DNA from: Candidatus Heimdallarchaeota archaeon
Lineage (GTDB): Archaea > Asgardarchaeota > Heimdallarchaeia > Heimdallarchaeales > Heimdallarchaeaceae
Direction of reading: 5' to 3'
Length of the DNA: 40,323 nucleotides
Assembly (NCBI GenBank): GCA_019057375.1
Contig: DXJF01000089.1
Location: 1 to 40,323, forward strand
Shown here in pieces: positions 1,329-25,098 of this stretch. The position numbers and the translations under genes are program-made. Positions within the stretch are counted from its first letter, which is position 1. Every line of letters begins with the position of its first letter. The notes under the pieces are model-generated. The model worked only from the letters and a program-made list of their open reading frames with translations, did not search any database and was not told the DNA's origin.

Positions 1329-2099
1329 TTAAACAGGAGCTATTTCTATATTTAAAATTTCAAGAATCCTTACCATTTCCTTAACATCTTCTATGGTATT
1401 TATTCTCATAGAGCTTCTGAACATGCTTGAGTTAAGTTCTGAAGCAACCTTGAAGATATCTCTTCTTCTCCAGACATCCATTGATGGGTTATATAATAAA
1501 ATATACATTATTTTCTTATCTAAATCACAGAGTAGATAAGTATCAGCATATTCCAATCTTTTACCAATCATTTCTTTAAGAGAATTATCAGCATTAATAG
1601 CGTAAATTCGAGGTATTTTTCCAGAGAACATATCTATCATTCTTGTGTAGAGCTGCTTAATTGAAGTAGGATTGATGTCAGATTCTTTTTGCAGACTTCT
1701 ACCAATGAGAGTGAAGTATGGTTCTATTAGTCCATAGCTATCTAAAACATCTCTAACAGCACTTCCTTCAAAAAGGAAGTAAGCTACACACAGACGATAC
1801 CCTGCTGCTGCAATTCTTTCATCTGTTGAGGATGTTATCTCTGTTTCAAAAGGAATGGCTATTGCTTTCAAGTTTTCATTTTCAGGAACTGGAAGAGGTC
1901 CAAGCATCTTTGGATTCTTAGTTCCATCCACTCTTCCAATTGAACCTTTATCCATTTCAACTAAAGTCATTCCTTGCATTACCAGAGTAAGAGCTGCATT
2001 TTCTTCAAGGGTAGAATTATTAAACAAAATTTCAGGCCCATAGTCTTTGAAGATACTAAATACCAAAACTGGCTCTTTACTTACATTTGGATTTATCAT
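1329..2099 (-). CDS. Putative uDENN/longin-like N-terminal domain fused to a gelsolin-like C-terminal domain
   Basis: N-terminal LVFSIFKDYGPEIL and GPLPVP...DER pattern resemble NPRL2/uDENN-type longins. C-terminal LEYADTYLLCDLDKKIMYIL...RRRDIFKVASELNS..RINTIED follows the gelsolin-repeat pattern. Recognised by eye only. Confidence 0.5.
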   Translation of the reverse strand: MINPNVSKEPVLVFSIFKDYGPEILFNNSTLEENAALTLVMQGMTLVEMDKGSIGRVDGTKNPKMLGPLPVPENENLKAIAIPFETEITSSTDERIAAAGYRLCVAYFLFEGSAVRDVLDSYGLIEPYFTLIGRSLQKESDINPTSIKQLYTRMIDMFSGKIPRIYAINADNSLKEMIGKRLEYADTYLLCDLDKKIMYILLYNPSMDVWRRRDIFKVASELNSSMFRSSMRINTIEDVKEMVRILEILNIEIAPV

Positions 2100-2108
2100 T
2101 TTTTTTCC

Positions 2109-3104
2109 TCAATATTCATCTTCTTTTGATGGTTGTTGATCTAGCAATATTGCTATTTCAGGGATTTTAGACAAAAATTCATATTTGATTTGTCTAGGCA
2201 TTTCTTTCGTTGGATCACGTTCTTTATCTTCAATGAAAGCATTAAGAATCTCTTCAGCTAGAGATTGAGCTTTTGATTCACTATCATCTCGATCAACGAA
2301 TAAAACAATACTCCAAGACTCCATCTTTCGAATTACCATTTTGATCACACCAAGTTTGACAACATCCATCACCGATTCACTTTCAAAAATAGTAGAAGCC
2401 ATGATGTTTAGAGCACTAATTAAACCACCCAATAGAGTACTGTCATGCTCCTCAATTGATTTATCAAAAGTATGATCAAATGCGGGTACACCACCTTCTT
2501 GAAGAATAATAACTCTTTTAGGATTTACTTCTTCTCTCAATGGTGTCCTACCTGTCATCCTGGAAATAATCCAGTCAAATGCTGTATAGAAATTTTCGCC
2601 TGTTTTAATACTTACAGGATAAATGGAAACTGAACGATTAATATCATCCATGATTACTTGAAATGCTGGATCCTGAAGTAAATCTGGGAAAGGTACTGAA
2701 TCTGGTAAATCTGTTTTATTTGCCAAAAATAATATAGAGGTTGATTGTGGAATTTTATCAAACAGACTAAATATATATTCAAATGATGCTTCAATGTGAC
2801 GGGTGGATTGCCCATCAATAACAAAGACAATTCCATCAATTTTACTCAAAATATCTTGGAAATATGGGCTTTCTCTAGCAGTTTCTTCATCTGCTTCAAG
2901 AAGAGTAATGACAGATTTACCATAAGTAACATTAATGTAACAAGTTAATTGAGGAGGTTGTCCATCAGAAATGGTTCCATATAACAAACGGCTAACAACA
3001 CTGGATTTTCCTGACCCTTCAAGTCCCAATATAACAAGTTGGGGAATCTTCTGTTCTTGAGAAGAAATCAGCTTATCTCGGATAAAGGAAAGGTAGTTGC
3101 TCAA
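2109..3104 (-). CDS. Arf-like small GTPase with degenerate G3 motif, fused to a C-terminal longin-like domain
   Basis: G1 GLEGSGKSS, IVFVIDG strand, G4 NKTD, G5 SIKTG; G3 position reads LLEADEE. C-terminal VIILQEGGVPAF...LLGGLISALNIMASTIF...IVLFVD is a typical longin pattern. Confidence 0.75.
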   Translation of the reverse strand: MSNYLSFIRDKLISSQEQKIPQLVILGLEGSGKSSVVSRLLYGTISDGQPPQLTCYINVTYGKSVITLLEADEETARESPYFQDILSKIDGIVFVIDGQSTRHIEASFEYIFSLFDKIPQSTSILFLANKTDLPDSVPFPDLLQDPAFQVIMDDINRSVSIYPVSIKTGENFYTAFDWIISRMTGRTPLREEVNPKRVIILQEGGVPAFDHTFDKSIEEHDSTLLGGLISALNIMASTIFESESVMDVVKLGVIKMVIRKMESWSIVLFVDRDDSESKAQSLAEEILNAFIEDKERDPTKEMPRQIKYEFLSKIPEIAILLDQQPSKEDEY

Positions 3105-4115
3105 TTAACGTCTTCCTCCTTCAACTTCTAGAGGAAACTTACTCTCAAACACTTCATTGAGATTCTTTTTAACTTCCGTAGGATTTCGACTAAAGTTCTC
3201 TAGAATTCTAAGTTGTATTTGTTGAGCTCTTGTGACAGGATCAATAGGATCAATCATAACGGATAAACAGTAAGCTCCTCTCTTAACGTGACTTACATGT
3301 TTCTTAAACAAACTTTCCAATTTAACAGATTGTATGCTCTCTTTAGATTCAACAGCAAACATTCTAGTTAATTCTTTTAATTTCTTAAAATCATTAGCAA
3401 TTTCAGCTTGTTCAGTAGGTCTGCCAAAGATAGCTTCAGAGAGGATATTCCCACTTATATCTGCTAATACAGCTGCACCAATCTTAACTTTCCATTGTTG
3501 CGCGCCGCACAAAACATCGACTACCCAGTCCCATGCCTCATATACTCCCTGACCAGTTAGTGCTGATACTTTCTTTATGTTAAATGGTCTAAGATTTCTC
3601 AAAAACTTATCTAATTCGAAAGCTTCGTTAATCTCAGTTAGTTCTTTTGAATTTGGTAAATCACTTTTGTTTGCTAGAAATAGAACAGGAGCACTTTGTT
3701 TTGCAAAGTTTATGTAATGCCAAAAAGTTTGTTTTGATTCCTCAAATCTTACATGATCAGCTGAATCAACTAGATATATTACTGAATCAGCTCTTTCAAT
3801 AAACTTCTTCCATAAACTTAATCTGAAAGGTTGATGTCCACCTAGATCAAAACATGTGAAATTCAAATCACGATATTGATAGTTTTCTAGATTAATTCCA
3901 TATGTGGGTCTAACCACAATATCTTCCTGTTTTAGTAATTTCTTAACTAGAGATGTTTTACCTGCTCTTTCTAGACCTAATAATGCGACACTAAACTTGT
4001 TTCTCCCTACTACTGATTCTTGATATGTTCCCCCTGTCCGCTCTTGTTTACGTTGTTGTTTTTCTCGTTTTTGCTTCTCCTCTAAAATACGCTTTCGGAA
4101 CTCATAGAAGGACAT
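3105..4115 (-). CDS. Arf/Sar1-like small GTPase fused to a C-terminal longin/roadblock-like domain
   Basis: G1 GLERAGKTS, switch I PTYGIN, G3 FDLGGHQ, VIYLVDSAD, G4 NKSD, G5 SALTG. C-terminal ~130 aa has the AAVLADISGNIL...LSVMID strand-helix pattern. Confidence 0.85.
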   Translation of the reverse strand: MSFYEFRKRILEEKQKREKQQRKQERTGGTYQESVVGRNKFSVALLGLERAGKTSLVKKLLKQEDIVVRPTYGINLENYQYRDLNFTCFDLGGHQPFRLSLWKKFIERADSVIYLVDSADHVRFEESKQTFWHYINFAKQSAPVLFLANKSDLPNSKELTEINEAFELDKFLRNLRPFNIKKVSALTGQGVYEAWDWVVDVLCGAQQWKVKIGAAVLADISGNILSEAIFGRPTEQAEIANDFKKLKELTRMFAVESKESIQSVKLESLFKKHVSHVKRGAYCLSVMIDPIDPVTRAQQIQLRILENFSRNPTEVKKNLNEVFESKFPLEVEGGRR

Positions 4116-4119
4116 TCAT

Positions 4120-4125
4120 TCACCT
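4120..4125 (-). promoter_or_regulatory. Shine-Dalgarno-like AGGTGA upstream of the GTPase operon
   Basis: TCACCT on + at 4120-4125, 4 nt from the ATG at 4115; the same hexamer occurs at 5151-5156 before the uppP ATGs. Confidence 0.6.
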
Positions 4126-4317
4126 TTTTCTTTCAAATTTGGGAACTGGAATAGTACTGTTTTGAACAATTCTAATATAGTTTTTTCTATTTTAATGTTT
4201 TCGCTAACTGTAACATCTAGTAACTATTAATTAACGCTTATTCAATCAGAGTTATTTAAACATTCACATAGTAAAACCAGCCTAAAGCACATTAGATGGT
4301 ATTTGGGGAAAATTATA

Positions 4318-5154
4318 TTATGGGATAGTTATGAATTTTAGAGAGAACAAAATTAGAGTAATTATACCTAGGACCATGCAAATTAAAGCAAAGTTATACT
4401 TTCTTGCAATGAAAATAAAAAGCTCCATGGTAAGATAACCAATAATTGCGGTTAATATTACTGCGATAAGTAATAACCACCATTCAATTGGAAAAATGTT
4501 TCCTCCTTCTATAGCAACCACGATAAGATTCAAAATAAATCCACCTAAAACAGCTGGAATACTCATTAGAAAACTCCCTTTCACAGTATCTTCCTTTTTA
4601 GTGGACATTAATAACAATCCACTCATGGTTATTCCTGATCTGCTTATTCCCGGGATAATGGAAAATCCTTGTAGAAGGCCACTTGAAGTCATTTGTAGTT
4701 TGTTTAGCTCTTCGATTGTTTTTCCAGTTCGCTTTTGTTTTCCTGAATAATAGAGTAAGAATGCTGTAATAATTAAAGCCAGTCCAATCACCAGCATTAC
4801 ATATTCACCTATATTGGGACTTGTAATGAAGTATCTAACTAAGAAAAAGCAAGGAACTCCTGTAATTACAGTTCCTAGGGTACTATAAAATAGAAACCAT
4901 CTCCACTGAATTACAGACTCTTCTCTATTCTTATAATTGAGATATTGAAGAATTTCCTTCCTATATTTAACCAGAACAGCAATTAATGTTCCTAGATGTA
5001 ACCATATAGAAATTTCGAGAGCTAATTGGGGTTCTAAACCAGTAATGTATACTAAAAGTGAAACTGTTTGTCCTTCTGAACTGACTGGTAACCATTCTAA
5101 TATTCCTTGAATTAAAGCAAATAATAAAATGAACCAGCTGGACATCATTGTCAC
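4318..5154 (-). CDS. uppP: Undecaprenyl/polyprenyl-diphosphate phosphatase (BacA/UppP family)
   Basis: QGILEWLPVSSEG, LHLGTLIAV, QGFSIIPGISRSGIT and SFLMSIPAV motifs with multiple TM helices. The true start is probably the ATG at 5148 or 5145, after AGGTGA. Confidence 0.9.
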   Translation of the reverse strand: MTMMSSWFILLFALIQGILEWLPVSSEGQTVSLLVYITGLEPQLALEISIWLHLGTLIAVLVKYRKEILQYLNYKNREESVIQWRWFLFYSTLGTVITGVPCFFLVRYFITSPNIGEYVMLVIGLALIITAFLLYYSGKQKRTGKTIEELNKLQMTSSGLLQGFSIIPGISRSGITMSGLLLMSTKKEDTVKGSFLMSIPAVLGGFILNLIVVAIEGGNIFPIEWWLLLIAVILTAIIGYLTMELFIFIARKYNFALICMVLGIITLILFSLKFITIP

Positions 5155-5187
5155 CTATTTTTCTTAACGGTAAATCTAACTTACAAG

Positions 5188-5625
5188 TTATTCTTGACTT
5201 ATTCTCCATTGAATATATTCTTCTAATTGTTCTCCTGTAGAGACAATTTTTTCATCCCCATCTAGCTGAGAATCAATAGCTTTTCCTTCTATGATTAACA
5301 CCCATCCTTCTCCGTAGGGATCTGAATTTATCAATTCAGGTTGATTCTGATGTGCAGCATTCTTCTCTAGAATAGTACCATCAATTGGAGATTTGATTTG
5401 ACCAACCCATTTTCCACTTTCATATGTTCCTACTACTTGATTTTTCTTAACTCGTTTATCGACTTTCATCGTGCGAACAAATTCAATCGTACCAGCTCTT
5501 GAAGAAGCATAACTATCTATACCTATTTTTATGCTAGTTTCGTTTATTTTTCTGATCCACATATGGCCTGGTTCTCCCAGAACATAGAACAAATCGTCAG
5601 GGAATTCATAATCATTTATTTTCAT
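5188..5625 (-). CDS. gcvH: Glycine cleavage system H-like lipoyl carrier protein
   Basis: HMWIR, IGIDSYA, lipoyl-lysine motif YESGKWVGQIKSPIDG, and PELINSDPYGEGWV. Confidence 0.88.
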   Translation of the reverse strand: MKINDYEFPDDLFYVLGEPGHMWIRKINETSIKIGIDSYASSRAGTIEFVRTMKVDKRVKKNQVVGTYESGKWVGQIKSPIDGTILEKNAAHQNQPELINSDPYGEGWVLIIEGKAIDSQLDGDEKIVSTGEQLEEYIQWRISQE

Positions 5626-7034
5626 ATAATCAACCTACTTGCTATTTTCACAATTGCTTTTAATCTTACCAGTGGAAAGAACCTTATTCTTGGTGATATA
5701 ACTTTTCCTGGATTACTAATATTCTTGGGGTCTACTTTCTTTTTAAATTCCTGGTATCTTCTGTATTGCTCTTTTCCATAGATTGAGTTATAATAGCCAG
5801 AAAACCATAGTCCAGTTGAATAGGGGAATCCTTTTGCTCTACTTTTCTTTGTTGTGATTTTGTAAAGCTTCAAATTCAGAATTGTCTTTTTTATTTCTGA
5901 AAGTTTCTCTTCAAAGAGGAGATAAATTAGCAAAGAATAATGGGTTGGAGATATCATTTCGCCTTCTAAGTGAAGCTCTCCTTTGAATTTTGAGATTATT
6001 TTTCTGAAGAATCTTTCACTAGTTTCTACAGGTAAAATAACTTCGGTGACAAGATAATCAGTACATTCGCCTAGTAGTGAAAAACCTTTGAATCGGAAAT
6101 CCCAAATGTCTTTAATATATCGTCTATCTAGGATTTGCCCTCCAGAAACTCTGATTGCATTGTTAAAAAGGTTATTAAATTCCTTCTCCTCTTCCTCAAA
6201 ACTTACTTCTTTGGATATTATAGCCACATAGCTTCTAGGTAAATTGAAGCCGAATACCTCATTGAATGACGTAACATGATCAGGATTAAGAAACCATATA
6301 GAGAAGGGATTAATTTTTGATAATTGTTCTAATCCCTTAAGCATTTCTGAAGGTGAATCAAAAGTACATCCTTGGTGTTTTAACGGAATATCAAATTTAA
6401 TTTTTAATACAACTTCAGTAATTGTACCAAGGGTTCCATGTGATCCAACAAATAATGAAATATCATCTAACTCTGTATATCTTTTTCTTTCTCCATTTGG
6501 AAGTACTACTTCTAAAGCTGCAATCTGTTCTTTAGCTCCACCATATTGAATGCTGCCTATACCATAGCCACCATGAGCTATCCAACCACCTACAGTAGCA
6601 GAGTGAAAACTTGAAGGATAAGAACATAGAGAAAAACCTTCGAGATTCAATTGACGCTGAAGATCAGAAAATACTATGGATGGAGCAGTAGTAACTGTCA
6701 GTTCTAGAGGGTCAACAAGGAAGTGACTTTCTAGACCTTTTGTATCAACAACAACTCCTTTTTTGTACGGCACACTACCACCAAAACCTGCAGTTCCACC
6801 ACCTCTCTGAGTAATCGGAATACGAGTTTCATTAGCTAGTTCATAGATCTTCTGCATATCTTCTGTATTTCTCACTTGGATAACTCCATCTGGAAGATTC
6901 CCTATGAATAGCTTTACAACTTTGGGTAAATCTGACATATCTCTTGAATATATTTGCAATGTTGTTTTATTATCTCTGAAATTTTTACCTAAATATCGAG
7001 TGAAACGAGTACGAGTTGCTTTCTTTAGAGTCAT
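5622..7034 (-). CDS. FAD-binding oxidoreductase, GlcD/D-lactate dehydrogenase (VAO/PCMH) family
   Basis: QRGGGTAGFGGSVP, YPSSFHSATVGGWIA, FVGSHGTLGTITEV, and C-terminal DPKNISNPGK; ATGA overlaps with both neighbours. Confidence 0.85.
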   Translation of the reverse strand: MTLKKATRTRFTRYLGKNFRDNKTTLQIYSRDMSDLPKVVKLFIGNLPDGVIQVRNTEDMQKIYELANETRIPITQRGGGTAGFGGSVPYKKGVVVDTKGLESHFLVDPLELTVTTAPSIVFSDLQRQLNLEGFSLCSYPSSFHSATVGGWIAHGGYGIGSIQYGGAKEQIAALEVVLPNGERKRYTELDDISLFVGSHGTLGTITEVVLKIKFDIPLKHQGCTFDSPSEMLKGLEQLSKINPFSIWFLNPDHVTSFNEVFGFNLPRSYVAIISKEVSFEEEEKEFNNLFNNAIRVSGGQILDRRYIKDIWDFRFKGFSLLGECTDYLVTEVILPVETSERFFRKIISKFKGELHLEGEMISPTHYSLLIYLLFEEKLSEIKKTILNLKLYKITTKKSRAKGFPYSTGLWFSGYYNSIYGKEQYRRYQEFKKKVDPKNISNPGKVISPRIRFFPLVRLKAIVKIASRLII

Positions 7035-8224
7035 TGTTCTCCCTCCATTGCTCTTAAAAGTAATTCTGAGATATCTAAAACCTCAACATTCAAGCCATTC
7101 TTCTTTACTCCCGCTAGTATTGTGTCTATGCAAGTTGGACAACCATTAGCTACAATTTCTGCTTCTGAATATTCTATTTCTGAGATTAAGTGAGAATTCA
7201 CTTGACTTACTAAATCAGAATCATTTAGTTTGAGTAATCCTCCACCTCCACAACAAAGAGCATCATTTTTATTTGAAGGAAGCTCCTCAAATCTGACATT
7301 TGGTATTTGTTTGATTACTTCTCTTGGAGCTTCAACTAAACCACAGTGTCTAACTAACTCACAAGGATCTTTGAATGTTATCTTCTCTTTGATTGCATGC
7401 TTGAGTTTGAGTTTACCTTTTTTGATTAGCTCATCTGCTAATTCAGTGATATGTAGGACTTCGATATCCCATTTATCTCCAAGAACTCTAGGATAACCGA
7501 TTTTAAAAGCTCTATAGCATCCTGAACATGCGGTAACAATCCTCGTAATTCCTAATTCCTTTAGTTGGTCAAGATTATGTTTTGCAAAGTTTTTACCAAC
7601 AGAATAACCTCCAGCAAGAAATATAGGGGATCCACAACACCATTCATCTAAACCTAATATGGTGAAATTTACTCTAGTTTTACGGAGAATTTTGACAACA
7701 CTTGGAGCTATATTACCCATTTTACCTGAATATGAAGCTTGACAGCCTACAAAATAAGCTATTGAAGCCTTCCTCTTCGTTCTTTTACTCATATTTAACC
7801 CAGCTAAATCCGCCCAAACTAGCCTTTCTTCTGTAGGTAAACCATAGATATTTTGAGTTGTTTTGACTTTGTTGTACAATGATAGTAATAATGGACTCCA
7901 TCTACCTTTTCTGAAAGCTTCTTGTCTGACTTGCTCCCAAACCTTGAGCAGAGGAAGATCAACAAGACAAATGTTTTCACATGCTTTGCACATGGTACAA
8001 GCAAATATTGCTTCAAAGAGAGTTTTTGATACCTCTATCTTATTCTCTTCCTTTACACCTTCGGAAAAATACATCCTAATTTGTTCTAGAATCCCTCTAG
8101 GATGATTTGTTTCCCATTTGAGTTCTTTGAAAGTTGGACACAAAGAACAGTAACCACAATAAACGCATTTCTGAGCTATTTCTAGTAAATCTACATGCCA
8201 ATCAGTTGTAGTACTCATGAACAA
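7031..8224 (-). CDS. GlcF/HdrD-like Fe-S protein (2x[4Fe-4S] plus two CCG domains)
   Basis: CVYCGYCSLCP, CTMCKACENIC, YFVGC, WCCG, TACSGC, DPCEL, CCGGGG, NGCPTC. Confidence 0.88.
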   Translation of the reverse strand: MFMSTTTDWHVDLLEIAQKCVYCGYCSLCPTFKELKWETNHPRGILEQIRMYFSEGVKEENKIEVSKTLFEAIFACTMCKACENICLVDLPLLKVWEQVRQEAFRKGRWSPLLLSLYNKVKTTQNIYGLPTEERLVWADLAGLNMSKRTKRKASIAYFVGCQASYSGKMGNIAPSVVKILRKTRVNFTILGLDEWCCGSPIFLAGGYSVGKNFAKHNLDQLKELGITRIVTACSGCYRAFKIGYPRVLGDKWDIEVLHITELADELIKKGKLKLKHAIKEKITFKDPCELVRHCGLVEAPREVIKQIPNVRFEELPSNKNDALCCGGGGLLKLNDSDLVSQVNSHLISEIEYSEAEIVANGCPTCIDTILAGVKKNGLNVEVLDISELLLRAMEGEQ

Positions 8225-8296
8225 TAAAAGAATATTTTTTTTCCTTTAATCTTTTGTGGTGATGATAGAGCGTTATTGGAAATATATGAAAAATTT

Positions 8297-8848
8297 CTAA
8301 GGTTTATATCTGTTAAAAACAAAAAAGTGTAATTTCTTCTTTATCATAGAAACTAAAACAAAATTCTTTCTAACAGTTGTTGCTAATCTTCCAGCTCGAA
8401 CTAGCTCGATAGGGTCAATCTTTCCATCTTTCTCAATTATTTGAATCATGTATGGACTATGTTCTAAACCTGGTCCTTTCGTGTATACAGCGAAGTCCAC
8501 CCCAAATTTCAATCCTGGTCTAACAATATATCCTAGATTACGCAGGTAACGATATACATTCATCTTGTTCTCAAAATTCATATAAAATACATGACATTTC
8601 ATAATAAAATCTGCTTTGAGAACTTTCCCTCCTTCTTCATCAACAACTGATAGTTTCCTTTTTTCTAGAAGATACAAAGCTTCAAAGGAGGAGAGTTCAG
8701 ATGGATCTCTAAATTCATCTCCTAAATTTGGTTTTCTAACACCCATAGGTTTGCCATAAAAACCATTAGAATATAGCTCCGTCCCCTGTTCAATATCCCA
8801 AATAATAATCCTTCTCCCTATCATTTGAGCATTATATTTCGGAGCCAT
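8297..8848 (-). CDS. endA: tRNA-splicing endonuclease, catalytic subunit
   Basis: LSSFEALYLL, VYRYLRNLGYIVRPGLKFGVDFAVY, EHS and VRKN; the Tyr-His-Lys triad positions are occupied. Confidence 0.92.
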   Translation of the reverse strand: MAPKYNAQMIGRRIIIWDIEQGTELYSNGFYGKPMGVRKPNLGDEFRDPSELSSFEALYLLEKRKLSVVDEEGGKVLKADFIMKCHVFYMNFENKMNVYRYLRNLGYIVRPGLKFGVDFAVYTKGPGLEHSPYMIQIIEKDGKIDPIELVRAGRLATTVRKNFVLVSMIKKKLHFFVFNRYKP

Positions 8849-8883
8849 TATAGTTCTGAAATTTCATAATAATATAAATAGAT

Positions 8884-8985
8884 TGAGATTAATTAGAAGA
8901 AGAAACATTAATCTCAGTTAAGACACTTCTTCCATCTACAACTTTCAATATCGTTTTATAGAAGTTTGTTAAAATTCTTAACTGA
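8884..8985. repeat. Two overlapping perfect 10-bp inverted repeats in the divergent endA / KaiC-like intergenic region
   Basis: TGAGATTAAT 8884-8893 with ATTAATCTCA 8907-8916; TCAGTTAAGA 8914-8923 with TCTTAACTGA 8976-8985. Confidence 0.7.
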
Positions 8986-8990
8986 AGAGT

Positions 8991-10397
8991 ATGATTGTCT
9001 CAACTGGGATTGAAGAACTCGACAACATGATTGACGGTGGTTTGAGAACTGGTTCTTGTTATGCTATTAAAGGATCAGCAGGTTCAGGTAAAACAGTTCT
9101 TTCACTATATTTGGCACTTGGAGCTCTTAAGAAGGATATTCCTGTATTGTTTATATCAACAGAAGTTGATCCTGAAAAATTGATAATTTATGGAGATTCA
9201 TTTAATATGAATCTTAAATCATATATTAACAAAGGGCTTTTAAGCTTCGAAAAAATGTCTTTAAAACCAAAAGGTACAAGTTTAGTTCAAACAGACAAAT
9301 TTGATCTCTCAGGGATTATAGCTAGAACTCAAAGCAAGATGAAGTCACTAAATGCAAAGCTTGTAATCTTTGATTCCATTTCAGCATTTTTTGCTGAATT
9401 TGCTTATGAAAAAACAGCTAGAAGCAACTTTATGGATTTTATTAGAGAAATCACTGATAAAGAAGCAGTTCTTGTACTAACTTCTGAAACTCAAATGAGT
9501 GATGAGTATTCAACAGTAGAAGAATTCCTTGTTGATGGAGTAATTAAGATTCGAACAGAATTGAAAAACAATCAGATGATAAAGAGAATTTCAGTGCCAA
9601 AACTAAGATCTGCTAAACCAATCAAGTTCGAAAACAGATTTATTATTGACAGAGATGGAGTATCAATTTTACGCTCTGAACAACCTCCAGTGTCTATAAT
9701 AGATGCTGAAAAGATAGGAGTTGAAAAATTAGATCAAATGCTTGGAGGGGGTATTCATGCAGGAAGCGTTGTTCTAATTGAGACAGATGGGGAAACAGAT
9801 TATTTTCCATTATTCCTACAGATTATGTGTTGCAATCTTGACAGGGGTATAGGAGTAATTATTCATTCTAATGTCCATATGTATTCAGCTAGAATAGTAG
9901 AAGAATTCAAGAAAGCTGAATGCGACATTAGCTCCCATCTAAATGAAGGTAATATAGTTTTTATTGATAAATATAATAGATCTGTAACTGCTGTTGAGGC
10001 AAGAGAGATGAGTCAACTGATGACTACAGATGATATGATTTCGGTAACAGTTGAATTAATGGAAGCATTTCAGAAATCAGACCAAAAGGTTATTCTCTTT
10101 GGAGATCTCACTGATGATACAAACATACTCACAGAACCTAATTTCCTGAGATATTTTGCCCTACAATCATTCAATATTAAAGAACAGAATGCAATAGCTT
10201 ATTCTTTTATCAATTTTAATGCCATAAGCAGAGAAATGTTAGCAAGATTACGGAATACAGCTGATACCATCATACGTTTCTCGAGATCTGAGTATACAAC
10301 CTATATTGAATGTCTAAAGAGTTCATCGGGTGCAACATTCTTACCTAAAGTAGTTAAATTTAATGAGAAATGTCCTTTAATTGAAATTCTAGATTAA
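8991..10397 (+). CDS. KaiC/RAD55-like double-domain RecA-superfamily ATPase (second domain lacks Walker A)
   Basis: STGIEELDNMIDGG, Walker A GSAGSGKT, LVIFDSIS, VEEFLVDGVI, KLRS. A second repeat begins IGVEKLDQMLGGGIHAGS but has ETDGETDY at the P-loop position. Confidence 0.85.
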   Translation: MIVSTGIEELDNMIDGGLRTGSCYAIKGSAGSGKTVLSLYLALGALKKDIPVLFISTEVDPEKLIIYGDSFNMNLKSYINKGLLSFEKMSLKPKGTSLVQTDKFDLSGIIARTQSKMKSLNAKLVIFDSISAFFAEFAYEKTARSNFMDFIREITDKEAVLVLTSETQMSDEYSTVEEFLVDGVIKIRTELKNNQMIKRISVPKLRSAKPIKFENRFIIDRDGVSILRSEQPPVSIIDAEKIGVEKLDQMLGGGIHAGSVVLIETDGETDYFPLFLQIMCCNLDRGIGVIIHSNVHMYSARIVEEFKKAECDISSHLNEGNIVFIDKYNRSVTAVEAREMSQLMTTDDMISVTVELMEAFQKSDQKVILFGDLTDDTNILTEPNFLRYFALQSFNIKEQNAIAYSFINFNAISREMLARLRNTADTIIRFSRSEYTTYIECLKSSSGATFLPKVVKFNEKCPLIEILD

Positions 10398-10407
10398 GTG
10401 ATGAGAA

Positions 10408-10671
10408 ATGAGTTTACAAATAATATTCTTCACAAGCCCAACATGCAGCTGGTGTCCTTATCTTGAAGGGATTCTGAGAAATATTATTTCTAATTCTAAA
10501 CAATTATCTTTAGAAGTGATTGATGTAACAGAAAATGTGGAGAAAGCTGCAGAATACCATATTGTTGCAATTCCAACTATTATCTTACCAAACAATCAAA
10601 GAATTATAGGAAGCGTTGACGAAGCGTTCTTACGGAAACAGATGGATCAATTTTTGATTATGATGAGTTAA
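10408..10671 (+). CDS. Small thioredoxin/glutaredoxin-fold protein
   Basis: FTSPTCSWCP (CxxC) and AEYHIVAIPT (cis-Pro loop); 87 aa. Confidence 0.88.
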   Translation: MSLQIIFFTSPTCSWCPYLEGILRNIISNSKQLSLEVIDVTENVEKAAEYHIVAIPTIILPNNQRIIGSVDEAFLRKQMDQFLIMMS

Positions 10672-23847: not shown

Positions 23848-25098
23848 ATGAAAGAAAACGTGAAGCTTATGTATGCAGGAGAGAATAAATTAGAGTCTAA
23901 AATCGTAGTACTAGGGTTATCCCAATCTGGAAAGACTTCCATTCGACAAGTTGTTTTCGAAGGTTTTTCACCTGAAGCAACATCTATGAATCCAGCAACT
24001 GTACGTATCAACAGAAAACTGTTCAACCTTGCAGGGAGTGCCATAAACTTGTTCGATGTTGGTGGTCAATCTAATTATTTGAATGAAGTTTTTGAGCAAT
24101 ATAAAGAAAGAACTTTCAGTGACACCAAAGCTTTCATTTTCGTAGTTGATATATCCGATGCATCCAACATTATGAGATCCAAGTATTATTTCGATCTAAC
24201 TATGGAAAATGCAGTCAAATTAGCTGAAGGATCTAAAATTTATGTTTTTGCACATAAGATGGATGTTGTTGCACCCAATAAACGAGAACCTGTTTTACTA
24301 TCTATTAAGGATATTTTTGAGATAGACGATTTCCCAAATGCAGAATTGTTAGGTACTTCAATCTTTGAAGAAACAATCTGGGATGCAATGCAGCAAGTAT
24401 TAGCCTATGTTTATCCAAAAGATGACAAAAAATCTGTTAAAATAAAAGAAACTTTCAGCAAGCAAGATTTAGCATTTCTTTCTCTTTCAACAGCTCAAGG
24501 ACTAATGTTATATTCTCAACCTGAAAGATATACAGGCTTCAATTTTGTTAAACTTAAGAACGATTTAGCGAAGATGTTTTCTCAAACCTTGGTGCTGGAG
24601 TATGCTACTTTCTCTTTTGATGAAAGCCGAGTTTACATGAGGGAGATTGATGCAGATTTAATTTTAACAACTGTTTTTCCACCTAATTTAGATGTAGATA
24701 GAGAAATAGAGTATTTTAACACACTGGCTTCAGAAATGAAGCAATTATTCCAAACTGATGAACTAATTGGTCGTGCTAGAATCAAGATGAAAGGAGCTTT
24801 AGAAGATTATCTCCTAAAGAATGGAATTGAGAAATCAGATCTACTCGAAAGAAGGATTGAACAAAATATTAATTACAGATGCGATGTTTGTGGAAGAAAC
24901 CTCCAGAAATCCATTATAGATGTAGCTGTAGAGAGTGCTGAACAGTTAGAAAGAGGAATAAAAATCCAAAAAGGTTTTGGAGCGATATCAGTTGAACTAT
25001 TCCCATCACATGAATGCGTTGAAGGGATAAGAGAAGTACCTATCTTCCTTGATGGTCAATTAGAATATCGCCGTTATGATGATAGCAGACCTGTATAA
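23848..25098 (+). CDS. Rag/Gtr-like GTPase with roadblock/longin-like middle domain and C-terminal CxxC...HxC domain
   Basis: GLSQSGKTSIRQVVF, PAT switch I, FDVGGQSNYLNEVF, Rag-type G4 HKMD, G5 TSIF; FLSLSTAQGLMLYS...LILTTVF; CDVC...HEC. Confidence 0.85.
   Translation: MKENVKLMYAGENKLESKIVVLGLSQSGKTSIRQVVFEGFSPEATSMNPATVRINRKLFNLAGSAINLFDVGGQSNYLNEVFEQYKERTFSDTKAFIFVVDISDASNIMRSKYYFDLTMENAVKLAEGSKIYVFAHKMDVVAPNKREPVLLSIKDIFEIDDFPNAELLGTSIFEETIWDAMQQVLAYVYPKDDKKSVKIKETFSKQDLAFLSLSTAQGLMLYSQPERYTGFNFVKLKNDLAKMFSQTLVLEYATFSFDESRVYMREIDADLILTTVFPPNLDVDREIEYFNTLASEMKQLFQTDELIGRARIKMKGALEDYLLKNGIEKSDLLERRIEQNINYRCDVCGRNLQKSIIDVAVESAEQLERGIKIQKGFGAISVELFPSHECVEGIREVPIFLDGQLEYRRYDDSRPV

Follow-up and report, generated by a model that had tools for sequence, protein, structure and literature searches.

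Rag and Gtr GTPases are heterodimers of two paralogous subunits that both function as GTPases, each consisting of a G domain and a C-terminal domain of the roadblock/longin superfamily. Their GTPase-activating proteins (GAPs) are FLCN-FNIP (Lst7-Lst4) and GATOR1 (NPRL2-NPRL3), and C9orf72-SMCR8(-WDR41) is a longin-DENN GAP for Arf GTPases. These eukaryotic longin GAPs are heterodimers of two longin-DENN proteins, and FLCN R164, SMCR8 R147, and NPRL2 R78 are the arginines to which a candidate finger can be compared. It has been reported that a GP motif before longin strand 2, accompanied by an arginine finger, is specific to GAP longins, including those of C9orf72-SMCR8, whereas longins that are not GAPs, for example those of adaptins, TRAPP subunits, and DENND proteins, lack the GP motif; Heimdallarchaeial longins have both features, and their partner GTPases were posed as a question (PMC12290439). 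Small GTPases and longin/roadblock proteins are encoded by the dozen in Asgard genomes. Their genes have been noted to lie, in general, outside operons, so that the GTPases cannot be matched to their regulators (PMC10933270). In Prometheoarchaeum syntrophicum MK-D1, GTPase genes generally lie outside operons with roadblock or longin genes, and one operonic Rag-like GTPase-roadblock pair is predicted to heterodimerise via the roadblock domains like Gtr1/Gtr2 (PMC10933270).

The window analyzed here, a stretch of 40,323 nucleotides from a Candidatus Heimdallarchaeota archaeon, contains three genes on the minus strand that may encode one GTPase switch module: gene A (3105-4115; 336 aa; ATG start), gene B (2109-3104; 331 aa; TTG start), and gene C (1329-2099; 256 aa; ATG start). 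All features of the operon given below are on the same strand. As read from the sequence, the TAA of A (3105-3107) abuts the TTG of B (3102-3104) with a gap of 0 nt, and 9 nt separate the TGA of B (2109-2111) from the ATG of C (2097-2099), which accords with the three co-oriented genes and the two gaps reported in a preliminary description of this DNA. That description had also placed the whole operon behind a single AGGTGA site. Such a Shine-Dalgarno-like sequence is indeed present at 4120-4125, 4 nt upstream of the ATG of A, but B and C each have a Shine-Dalgarno-like site of their own, namely, GGAGG within the 3' end of A and GAGGA overlapping the stop of B. Immediately 3' of the stop of C, we read an oligo-T tract, TCCTTTTCTTTTT (1316-1328); oligo-T is a termination signal for archaeal RNA polymerase, and the tract is the probable end of the A-B-C transcript. 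The next gene past C (GNAT; 869-1285) is convergent with the operon.

Gene A encodes an Arf/Sar-like GTPase whose orthologues are 65-97% identical to it within Heimdallarchaeaceae and 36-41% identical in a second Heimdallarchaeia family. Its top Pfam family was Arf (PF00025; 133.6 bits, cut-off 22.3, E = 6.7e-39, residues 38-200), and the closest solved structures were Arf1, Arl3, and Asgard ArfR. Against Gtr1_RagA (PF04670), A scored 25.2 bits, which narrowly clears the cut-off (22) and is much lower than the Arf score. Elsewhere in the window, ORF 23848-25098 encodes a true Gtr1/RagA-family GTPase (107.8 bits to PF04670). Motifs G1 to G5 of A (GLERAGKT, T71, DLGGH, NKSD, and SAL) are complete and invariant in the alignment of the A family (A2). 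They comprise the P-loop G47-LERAGKT54 (G1; 3954-3977), in which G47, A51, G52, K53, and T54 are invariant, the switch II D90-LGGHQ95 (G3; 3831-3848), with D90, G92, G93, and H94 invariant, and the G4 motif N149-KSD152 (3660-3671), with N149, K150, and D152 invariant. The histidine that replaces the Arf glutamine in switch II is a Sar1-like feature. With this Arf/Sar-type G domain and a catalytic histidine in switch II, A would be the working switch of the module. Besides, residues 1 to 15 of A (MSFYEFRKRILEEKQ; 4071-4115) form a conserved segment of amphipathic character, whose pattern SF[YL]xFR+R[IL] is kept in both families, with hydrophobic moments of 0.42 in this A and 0.63 in that of the second family; a linker rich in Lys/Arg/Glu/Gln (residues 16-37) follows. 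A has no Gly2 for myristoylation, and the amphipathic segment may tether A to a membrane.

Arf was also the top Pfam family of B (55.6 bits, cut-off 22.3, E = 6e-15), and Arf and Arl proteins were its closest solved structures, while its score against Gtr1_RagA (19.0 bits) fell under the cut-off of 22. When the A and B alignments (A2 and A4) were compared by hhalign, they matched with a probability of 99.9 and an E value of 5.8e-33 over 270 columns; judged from these profiles, B is paralogous to A in each of the two domains and has them in the same layout. B retains the P-loop G27-LEGSGKS34 (3003-3026; G27, G32, and K33 invariant in A4) and the G4 motif N129-KTD132 (2709-2720; N129 and K130 invariant and D132 in at least 90% of A4), and because both motifs are intact, this ancient paralogue probably still binds guanine nucleotide. 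The DxxG[QH] of switch II is replaced by E70-ADEE74 (2883-2897), aligned to D90-LGGH94 of A, meaning that G3 is lost, and the switch I Thr71 of A aligns to a proline of B by hhalign, meaning that G2 is lost. At the switch II position, B proteins of the other family carry D[LI]G[QN], likewise not DxxG, and B is without G2 and G3 in both operon-carrying families. Since the switch I threonine and DxxG are lost, B would be unable to switch or to hydrolyse GTP normally. It is nevertheless a gene under constraint rather than a decaying one, because its orthologues are kept at 59-98% identity. The Pfam matches, the motif states, and the hhalign result therefore bear out the earlier view of an active Arf/Sar-like GTPase accompanied by a degenerate paralogue.

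Of the A/B pair, B alone was folded, giving an AF2 model with a pLDDT of 74 and a helix at its N-terminus (residues 2-14). Foldseek aligned the model over 294-315 columns to Gtr1 (E = 7e-14), RagA, RagC, Gtr1p-Gtr2p, and LokiRagO, with E values from 7e-14 to 1e-10. According to DSSP, the C-terminal domain of B (residues 190-331; 2112-2537) has the order beta-beta-alpha-beta-beta-beta-alpha-alpha, with strands at 195-202 and 207-212, a helix at 222-240, strands at 246-251, 254-261, and 264-271, and helices at 276-296 and 306-322; in the model, this is the order of a longin and not the classic roadblock order. The C-terminal domain of A (residues 206-336; 3108-3500) is assigned to the longin/roadblock superfamily via its homology to the domain of B (HMM E = 4e-5). 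Sequence profiles linked neither of these two C-terminal domains to any solved longin or roadblock, nor to the longin of C.

The pair resembles the Rag/Gtr heterodimers in that two paralogous GTPases each combine a G domain with a C-terminal domain of the roadblock/longin superfamily, but it differs from them in that the G domains are of the Arf family and in that B, by motif loss, appears to be catalytically dead. If the analogy with RagA/RagC and Gtr1/Gtr2 holds, the two proteins would form a constitutive heterodimer via their C-terminal domains. The MK-D1 pair is likewise formed by two adjacent Asgard GTPase genes with roadblock/longin domains, although as described it has neither a degenerate subunit nor a linked longin-gelsolin gene (PMC10933270).

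Gene C gave no Pfam or NCBIfam match. Profile searches recovered a C family of 61 representatives, which occurs in all seven Heimdallarchaeia families sampled, with 2-8 matches per genome. All fold matches of C rest on a low-confidence model (pLDDT 60.8), in which VIA-align recognized a longin domain (residues 10-160; 1620-2072) followed by a gelsolin-fold domain (residues 161-256; 1332-1619). The longin domain matched the Lst4 longin (Z 10.0), a Lokiarchaeota Roadblock-Longin protein (Z 9.7), C9orf72-SMCR8 (Z 9.5 over 135 residues), chain H of the FLCN-complex entry 6nzd (Z 9.3), and chain N of the FLCN-FNIP2 entry 6ulg (Z 9.0); the longin-GAP group was aligned over 126-135 residues with Z values of 9.0-10.0. 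Pfam Folliculin did not match C. The anatomy proposed in the preliminary description, in which every product carries a longin/roadblock-type domain and the third is a longin-gelsolin protein, agrees with the fold comparisons of B and of the two halves of C and, for A, with the homology to B.

The most conserved residues of the C family (n = 45) are those of GP, GPxPV, and DxR in the longin half, suggesting that the protein functions chiefly through its longin face. The GP motif, G21-P22 (2034-2039), is kept in 45/45 members and directly precedes longin strand 2 (residues 23-27). Between strands 4 and 5 lies an acid-x-Arg motif, D93-E-R95 (1815-1823; D in 43/45 and R in 42/45 members), whose R95 is a candidate arginine finger; R102 (1794-1796), just before strand 5 and Arg in 35 of the 45 members, is the second candidate. 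C very probably belongs to, or is close to, the Heimdallarchaeial "Folliculin/SMCR8 longin domain-containing" proteins (PMC12290439, Traffic 2025), with which it shares the lineage and, within the longin, both a conserved arginine and a GP that precedes strand 2, although that paper, with its 15 sequences, makes no mention of a gelsolin fusion, an operon, or the gene neighbourhood.

Most longin/roadblock platforms are exchange factors or scaffolds (PMC10933270). C might be an exchange factor or scaffold as well, its longin assembling with the A and B C-terminal domains into a platform like Ragulator, Mon1-Ccz1, or TRAPP, which would favour nucleotide exchange or localisation rather than hydrolysis, and the Mon1-Ccz1, TRAPP, and AP sigma/mu longins are indeed among the folds matched by C (Z 6.4-7.8). 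However, these folds score below the longin-GAP group, and the GP motif that is invariant in C is the one that non-GAP longins lack (PMC12290439); we consider this explanation quite unlikely.

In the gelsolin half, residues 162-252 matched Thorarchaeota ProGel (7c2f_D) with a Z of 11.4 (rmsd 2.3, 86/88 residues, 19% identity), followed by adseverin (Z 10.0), gelsolin (Z 9.5), the Loki and Heimdall 2DGel-actin complexes (Z 8.4-8.7, Heimdall 2DGel at 8.4), and the gelsolin-like domains of Sec23/Sec24 (Z 8.1, 6.7, and 6.5, with Sec23 best). The profile of the C family also matched the ProGel sequence (E = 8e-4), the D186-x-Y-L-L-x-D192 strand is conserved, and N223 is kept in 44/45 members. C is similar in these respects to the Asgard gelsolins ProGel, 1DGel, and 2DGel (PDB 7c2f, 7c2h, 7whf, and 7whg), but the latter are stand-alone actin regulators, whereas in C a longin precedes the gelsolin domain in the same protein, and the gene stands next to GTPase genes.

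Instead of regulating A, C could be an effector or adaptor. It would be recruited by A in the GTP-bound state, B serving as a scaffold, and its gelsolin domain would cap, sever, or nucleate Asgard actin, so that a membrane-bound switch is coupled to the cytoskeleton. That the best single fold match of C is a ProGel crystallised with actin, that the 2DGel-actin complexes and the ProGel profile match follow, that the strand and N223 are conserved, and that the host genome has separate gelsolin-like genes are all consistent with this idea. However, neither C nor a single one of the 24 family members examined (0/24) matched Pfam Gelsolin (PF00626) at E<=1, the strongest conservation lies in the longin half, and gelsolin folds, as in Sec23/24, can be plain protein-binding modules. 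On balance, we regard an effector role as unlikely.

Sec23 leads to a further reading, in which A plays the part of Sar1 and C that of a minimal Sec23-like GAP with a gelsolin arginine finger, together a forerunner of the COPII pre-budding complex; the preliminary description had framed the operon in such vesicle-coat terms. Sar1-Sec23 indeed combines a switch II histidine, as in the DLGGH of A, with a GAP that has a gelsolin-like domain; besides, Sar1 was among the best fold matches of the G domain of B, the paralogue of A (Z 18.9), and Asgard Sec23-like proteins have been reported without exactly that gelsolin domain (PMC11914678). However, C shares the gelsolin fold with Sec23 but has none of the other Sec23 domains (trunk, zinc-finger, barrel, and helical), and Asgard gelsolins such as ProGel are closer to it than Sec23. 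The candidate finger, R244, is Arg in 11/45 members and Asp or Gln in some close orthologues, and Arg conservation nowhere in the gelsolin half exceeds 78%. Because the candidate Sec23-like arginine is not conserved, the COPII analogy is weak, and we find a Sar1-Sec23 system highly improbable; Rag-type paired GTPases with a folliculin/SMCR8/NPRL2-type longin GAP are the better analogy.

The preliminary description had suggested synteny across Asgard genomes as a check, and the gene order was found to be conserved. The A-B-C order is kept at 35/35 loci whose contig reaches far enough and at 24/30 loci of another set, in which three of the remaining six end at a contig edge and three are f4 paralogues. 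The arrangement spans two Heimdallarchaeia families and exceeds chance. In a quick tree of 52 rows, the B proteins of both families formed one starred clade, as did each A group, and thus the trio either existed before these families diverged or has moved as one block. In the same tree, whose backbone is unresolved and whose branches are long, A and B fell outside the cluster of eukaryotic Arf-likes and the small Arf-like proteins of this genome. A orthologues were absent from three families of the same order. Other C paralogues and solitary paralogues with a GTPase and a C-terminal domain are mostly unlinked to each other, so that a general GTPase-longin-gelsolin rule does not follow from these data.

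Taken together, we favor, with a probability of roughly one half, a reading in which an active Arf-like GTPase and a dead one form a heterodimer in the manner of Rag, and in which C serves as a GAP of the longin type or as a regulator. From the Rag/Gtr analogy and the co-inheritance of the genes, we infer that A and B pair via their C-terminal domains and that a trimer is formed with C. C would dock on the A-B dimer through its folliculin/SMCR8/NPRL2-type longin and stimulate GTP hydrolysis on A by the conserved R95 (or R102) near the invariant GP motif, while actin or some other partner would bind to a second surface, that of the gelsolin domain. Like the Rag/Gtr GTPases with FLCN-FNIP and GATOR1, the pair is linked to a longin that is nearest to those of Lst4, FLCN, and FNIP2 and that has a GP motif and a conserved arginine; like C9orf72-SMCR8, the putative GAP is associated with Arf-family G domains. 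In contrast to all of these heterodimers, C is a single, small, gelsolin-fused protein. The operon has no second longin-DENN gene, C has no DENN-type domain, and no second longin subunit beside C is obvious unless the A and B C-terminal domains take that place. A further parallel is MglA-MglB, in which a roadblock dimer regulates a small GTPase of prokaryotes, although MglB is a separate homodimer of the roadblock type that, unlike C, has neither a GP/Arg longin nor a gelsolin domain.

The A-B-C unit is one concrete trio in Asgard genomes and provides a candidate partner set for the GP-motif longins, a point left open in PMC12290439. Should biochemistry fail to support the proposed mechanism, A-B-C would still be a well-conserved, lineage-specific operon; as it stands, it offers a testable case of what may be a native archaeal switch encoded together with the enzyme that turns it off. 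A Rag-style layout built on Arf-type G domains, with one subunit dead, also bears on the divergence of Arf, Rag, and the longin GAPs. A bolder and quite unlikely extension is that the operon survives as a relative of the unit from which the eukaryotic longin-GAP systems arose (Rag with folliculin/GATOR1 and Arf with C9orf72-SMCR8). It would then encode a native archaeal small GTPase dimer with the build of Rag but G domains of Arf type, whose GP-longin off-switch is wired by gelsolin to Asgard actin. If this were true, genome context would for the first time have assigned a GTPase to its GAP among the archaea most closely related to eukaryotes, and membrane-switch signalling would have been tied to actin before eukaryogenesis.

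The three co-oriented ORFs claimed for this contig are present on the minus strand: gene A (3105-4115; 336 aa) encodes an Arf/Sar-like GTPase with a C-terminal domain, gene B (2109-3104; 331 aa, with a TTG start) its degenerate paralogue, and gene C (1329-2099; 256 aa) a longin-gelsolin protein. In the sequence, the TAA of A abuts the TTG of B with a gap of 0 nt, and 9 nt lie between the TGA of B and the ATG of C. AGGTGA stands 4 nt upstream of the ATG of A, sites of their own precede B (GGAGG) and C (GAGGA), and an oligo-T tract follows the stop of C. Because a convergent GNAT gene lies downstream and housekeeping genes (UppP/BacA, GcvH, FAD oxidase, CCG/Fe-S protein, and tRNA-intron endonuclease) lie upstream, the unit comprises only genes A, B, and C. 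A scan for sigma-70-type promoters and terminators returned fewer sites than in shuffled sequences and is not informative for an archaeon. A run labelled RNA-Seq consists in all probability of DNA contigs from a relative and does not bear on transcription.

The proposed operon also holds up across genomes, since the order A-B-C on one strand was kept in all 35 public-contig loci that extend far enough, and the three genes are co-inherited. Close homologues carry names that point to Heimdallarchaeaceae, and the best public relatives include Heimdallarchaeota AB_125 and Ca. Heimdallarchaeum endolithica and aukensis. Orthologues of A (E < 1e-140) were found in 30/30 sampled genomes of Heimdallarchaeaceae, the family of the window, and in 12/12 of a second family, which belongs to another order of Heimdallarchaeia. 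At E ≤ 1e-40, no A orthologue was detected in 16 genomes from three families (f2, f3, and f4) of the window's own order, and a fourth family had only a weaker, solitary paralogue. The distribution is patchy, as would follow if the whole unit had been lost or transferred. In the second family, a fourth co-oriented gene for a small GTPase of ~175 aa follows C (loci L089-L098, L039, and L046; e.g., L091:7053-7580), and this GTPase fell apart from both A and B in a quick tree. In one MAG (L085:4001-5010), where B and C are intact, a frameshift or else faulty assembly splits A into ORFs of 216 and 85 aa.

Other paralogues of C and other GTPases with a C-terminal domain are mostly unlinked, and linkage is thus a property of the orthologous A-B-C trio rather than of the families at large. 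A general rule linking GTPase and longin genes was not borne out in the window's own genome, where a GTPase gene occurred within 4.5 kb of none of seven other related-longin proteins. We observed nonorthologous longin-gelsolin paralogues within 1.5 kb of GTPase genes at 3 of 14 loci (L038:6027-11769, L036:5988-8848, and L045:4849-6865), which is suggestive only; one such locus has tandem paralogues of 341 and 345 aa ahead of a 739-aa protein that bears a GTPase domain at its N terminus, and at two the GTPase gene is ≤1 kb away. Elsewhere, six GTPase genes lie within ~7.5 kb at locus L057 (G003:C36:108500-122000, ~2716-10194), together with a 458-aa protein that is hit at its C terminus by the C-type longin profile (E = 1.8e-10). 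On contig C3 of genome G000 (9179-10416), a gene for a 178-aa small GTPase converges, with a 4-nt overlap, on an ORF that the gelsolin profile hits weakly (E = 0.007).

Pfam Arf was the best match of both GTPase-like proteins, with 133.6 bits for A and 55.6 bits for B (cutoff, 22.3), and among solved structures they stand closest to Arf, Arl, and Asgard ArfR proteins. In the A orthologues of the two families, all G motifs are kept (GLERAGKT, the switch I residue T71, DLGGH, NKSD, and SAL), and the His after DxxG is the Sar1-type state. A begins with a conserved, modestly amphipathic segment, after which comes a charged linker. Both domains of A and B, G and C-terminal, aligned over 270 columns in a profile-profile comparison (probability, 99.9%; E = 5.8e-33), which makes the two proteins paralogues. 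In this alignment, B has Pro at the switch I Thr of A and E-A-D-E-E at D-L-G-G-H; B of the second family has D[LI]G[QN] there, likewise not DxxG. The P-loop (GLEGSGKS) and NKTD are retained, invariant or nearly so among B orthologues. These motif states, together with an identity of 59 to 98% among B orthologues, bear out the degenerate GTPase of the preliminary description, and B is a conserved pseudo-GTPase, dead as a switch but probably still competent to bind nucleotide. In a quick tree built by maximum likelihood, the B proteins of the two families shared one starred clade, and the A groups were each well supported; a tandem-duplicate origin was not adopted, as the tree leaves the mutual position of the A and B clades unsettled.

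The B model (AF2; pLDDT, 74) has five strands after the G domain, with a helix between the second and the third and two to three more helices behind the last, an order that, as modeled, is of the longin type and would place the C-terminal domain in the longin/roadblock superfamily. With the whole model, the best Foldseek match was Gtr1 in the GATOR1-Gtr-Lam complex (E = 7e-14, 303 columns), after which came RagA/RagC, Gtr1p-Gtr2p, EGOC, and a RagA-like GTPase of Lokiarchaeal origin, with alignments of ~300 columns each, whereas Arf/Arl matches span only ~170 columns. The architecture is therefore of the Rag/Gtr type, but the G domain is Arf-like, in which the unit differs from Rag/Gtr proteins. 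The window also encodes a true Rag-type GTPase, as a 416-aa protein (23848-25098, plus strand) is hit by Pfam Gtr1_RagA (E = 7e-31, 107.8 bits). The VIA wide search with the B model covers the G domain, which filled the list (Arf6, 19.5; Sar1, 18.9; RagD, 17.9) and masked the C-terminal domain. The longin domains proposed for the GTPases gain full-length matches of B to Rag/Gtr chains, although profiles of the C-terminal domains of A and B gave no or chance-level matches to PDB sequences and link them to no solved relative. That of B also showed no link to the longin of C (hhalign probability, 0.1%), and its best Protein Atlas values (0.85 to 0.87, against ~140-aa Asgard "Roadblock/LAMTOR2" and hypothetical clusters) were under the lead threshold of 0.9. 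The longin-type assignment accordingly draws on the B model and its topology.

Gene C has no Pfam or NCBIfam match, and Protein Atlas returned only its own unnamed cluster. By profile search, the C family has 61 representatives, mostly of 240 to 280 aa, and occurs in every sampled Heimdallarchaeia family (2 to 8 matches per genome) and weakly outside the class. The C model is poor (AF2; pLDDT, 60.8), and both halves nonetheless gave clear and distinct fold matches, in agreement with the claimed longin and gelsolin domains. Residues 162 to 256 superpose on the Thorarchaeota ProGel (Z = 11.4; rmsd, 2.3; 86/88 residues), whose sequence is also matched by the C family profile (E = 8e-4), and on adseverin, gelsolin, villin, and Loki/Heimdall 2DGel; in C, however, this half is fused behind a longin domain. 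With such matches, C could be an actin-linking effector, which we regard as unlikely. It is far less probable, and the least likely of the readings weighed, that C is a Sec23-like GAP with a gelsolin finger, since the Sec23 gelsolin-like domain scored lower (Z = 8.1) and R244, the candidate finger, is Arg in only 11/45 members. Of the preliminary description, what was observed is borne out and the interpretation only in part: the anatomy, the pseudo-GTPase, and the conserved order stand, but the Sec23 analogy is weak.

Residues 10 to 160 of C superpose on the longin of Lst4 (Z = 10.0), a Lokiarchaeal Roadblock-Longin protein (9.7), C9orf72-SMCR8 (9.5), the FLCN-complex entry 6nzd chain H (9.3), and the FLCN-FNIP2 entry 6ulg chain N (9.0); TRAPP, AP sigma/mu, and Mon1-Ccz1 rank below the Lst4/C9orf72-SMCR8/FLCN group. 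In an alignment of 45 members (20 to 89% identity), the most conserved positions were G21-P22 (45/45), directly preceding the second strand, N223 (44/45), D93 (43/45), and R95 (42/45), along with G67-P68-x-P70 and G100; R102, a second candidate finger, is Arg in 35/45. A GP motif spatially beside the arginine finger has been described as a feature peculiar to GAP longins (SMCR8, C9orf72, FLCN, and NPRL2), and both features were noted in Heimdallarchaeial longins, with the question of whether their partners are ArfR or Rag GTPases (PMC12290439). C fits this description at the sequence level, with R95 or R102 as the putative finger. That C is instead a GEF or scaffold seems to us doubtful, somewhat more so than an actin-linking role.

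GTPase-longin/roadblock fusions and, in MK-D1, a Rag-like pair sharing one operon (PMC10933270), GP-motif longins of Heimdallarchaeia (PMC12290439), Asgard Sec23-like proteins without a gelsolin domain (PMC11914678), and Asgard gelsolins have already been published. In the searchable literature, we found no account of a longin-gelsolin fusion, a dead-subunit pair, or a conserved A-B-C operon.

Complex prediction for A (residues 36 to 336), B, C, and two GTP, with C as the partner, gave a median of 0.50, against 0.00 in both C-replaced controls and 0.58 in the B-replaced control, and counts neither way on binding. The best-supported reading, to which we assign a probability of about 0.5, is that A and B, Arf-like GTPases of which the first is active and the second dead, would pair as a Rag-style heterodimer, with C as a folliculin/SMCR8-type longin regulator, most likely a GAP. 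C would bind the A-B pair and most likely stimulate GTP hydrolysis, and its gelsolin domain would serve as a second interaction surface; contacts with membrane and actin may also be made.
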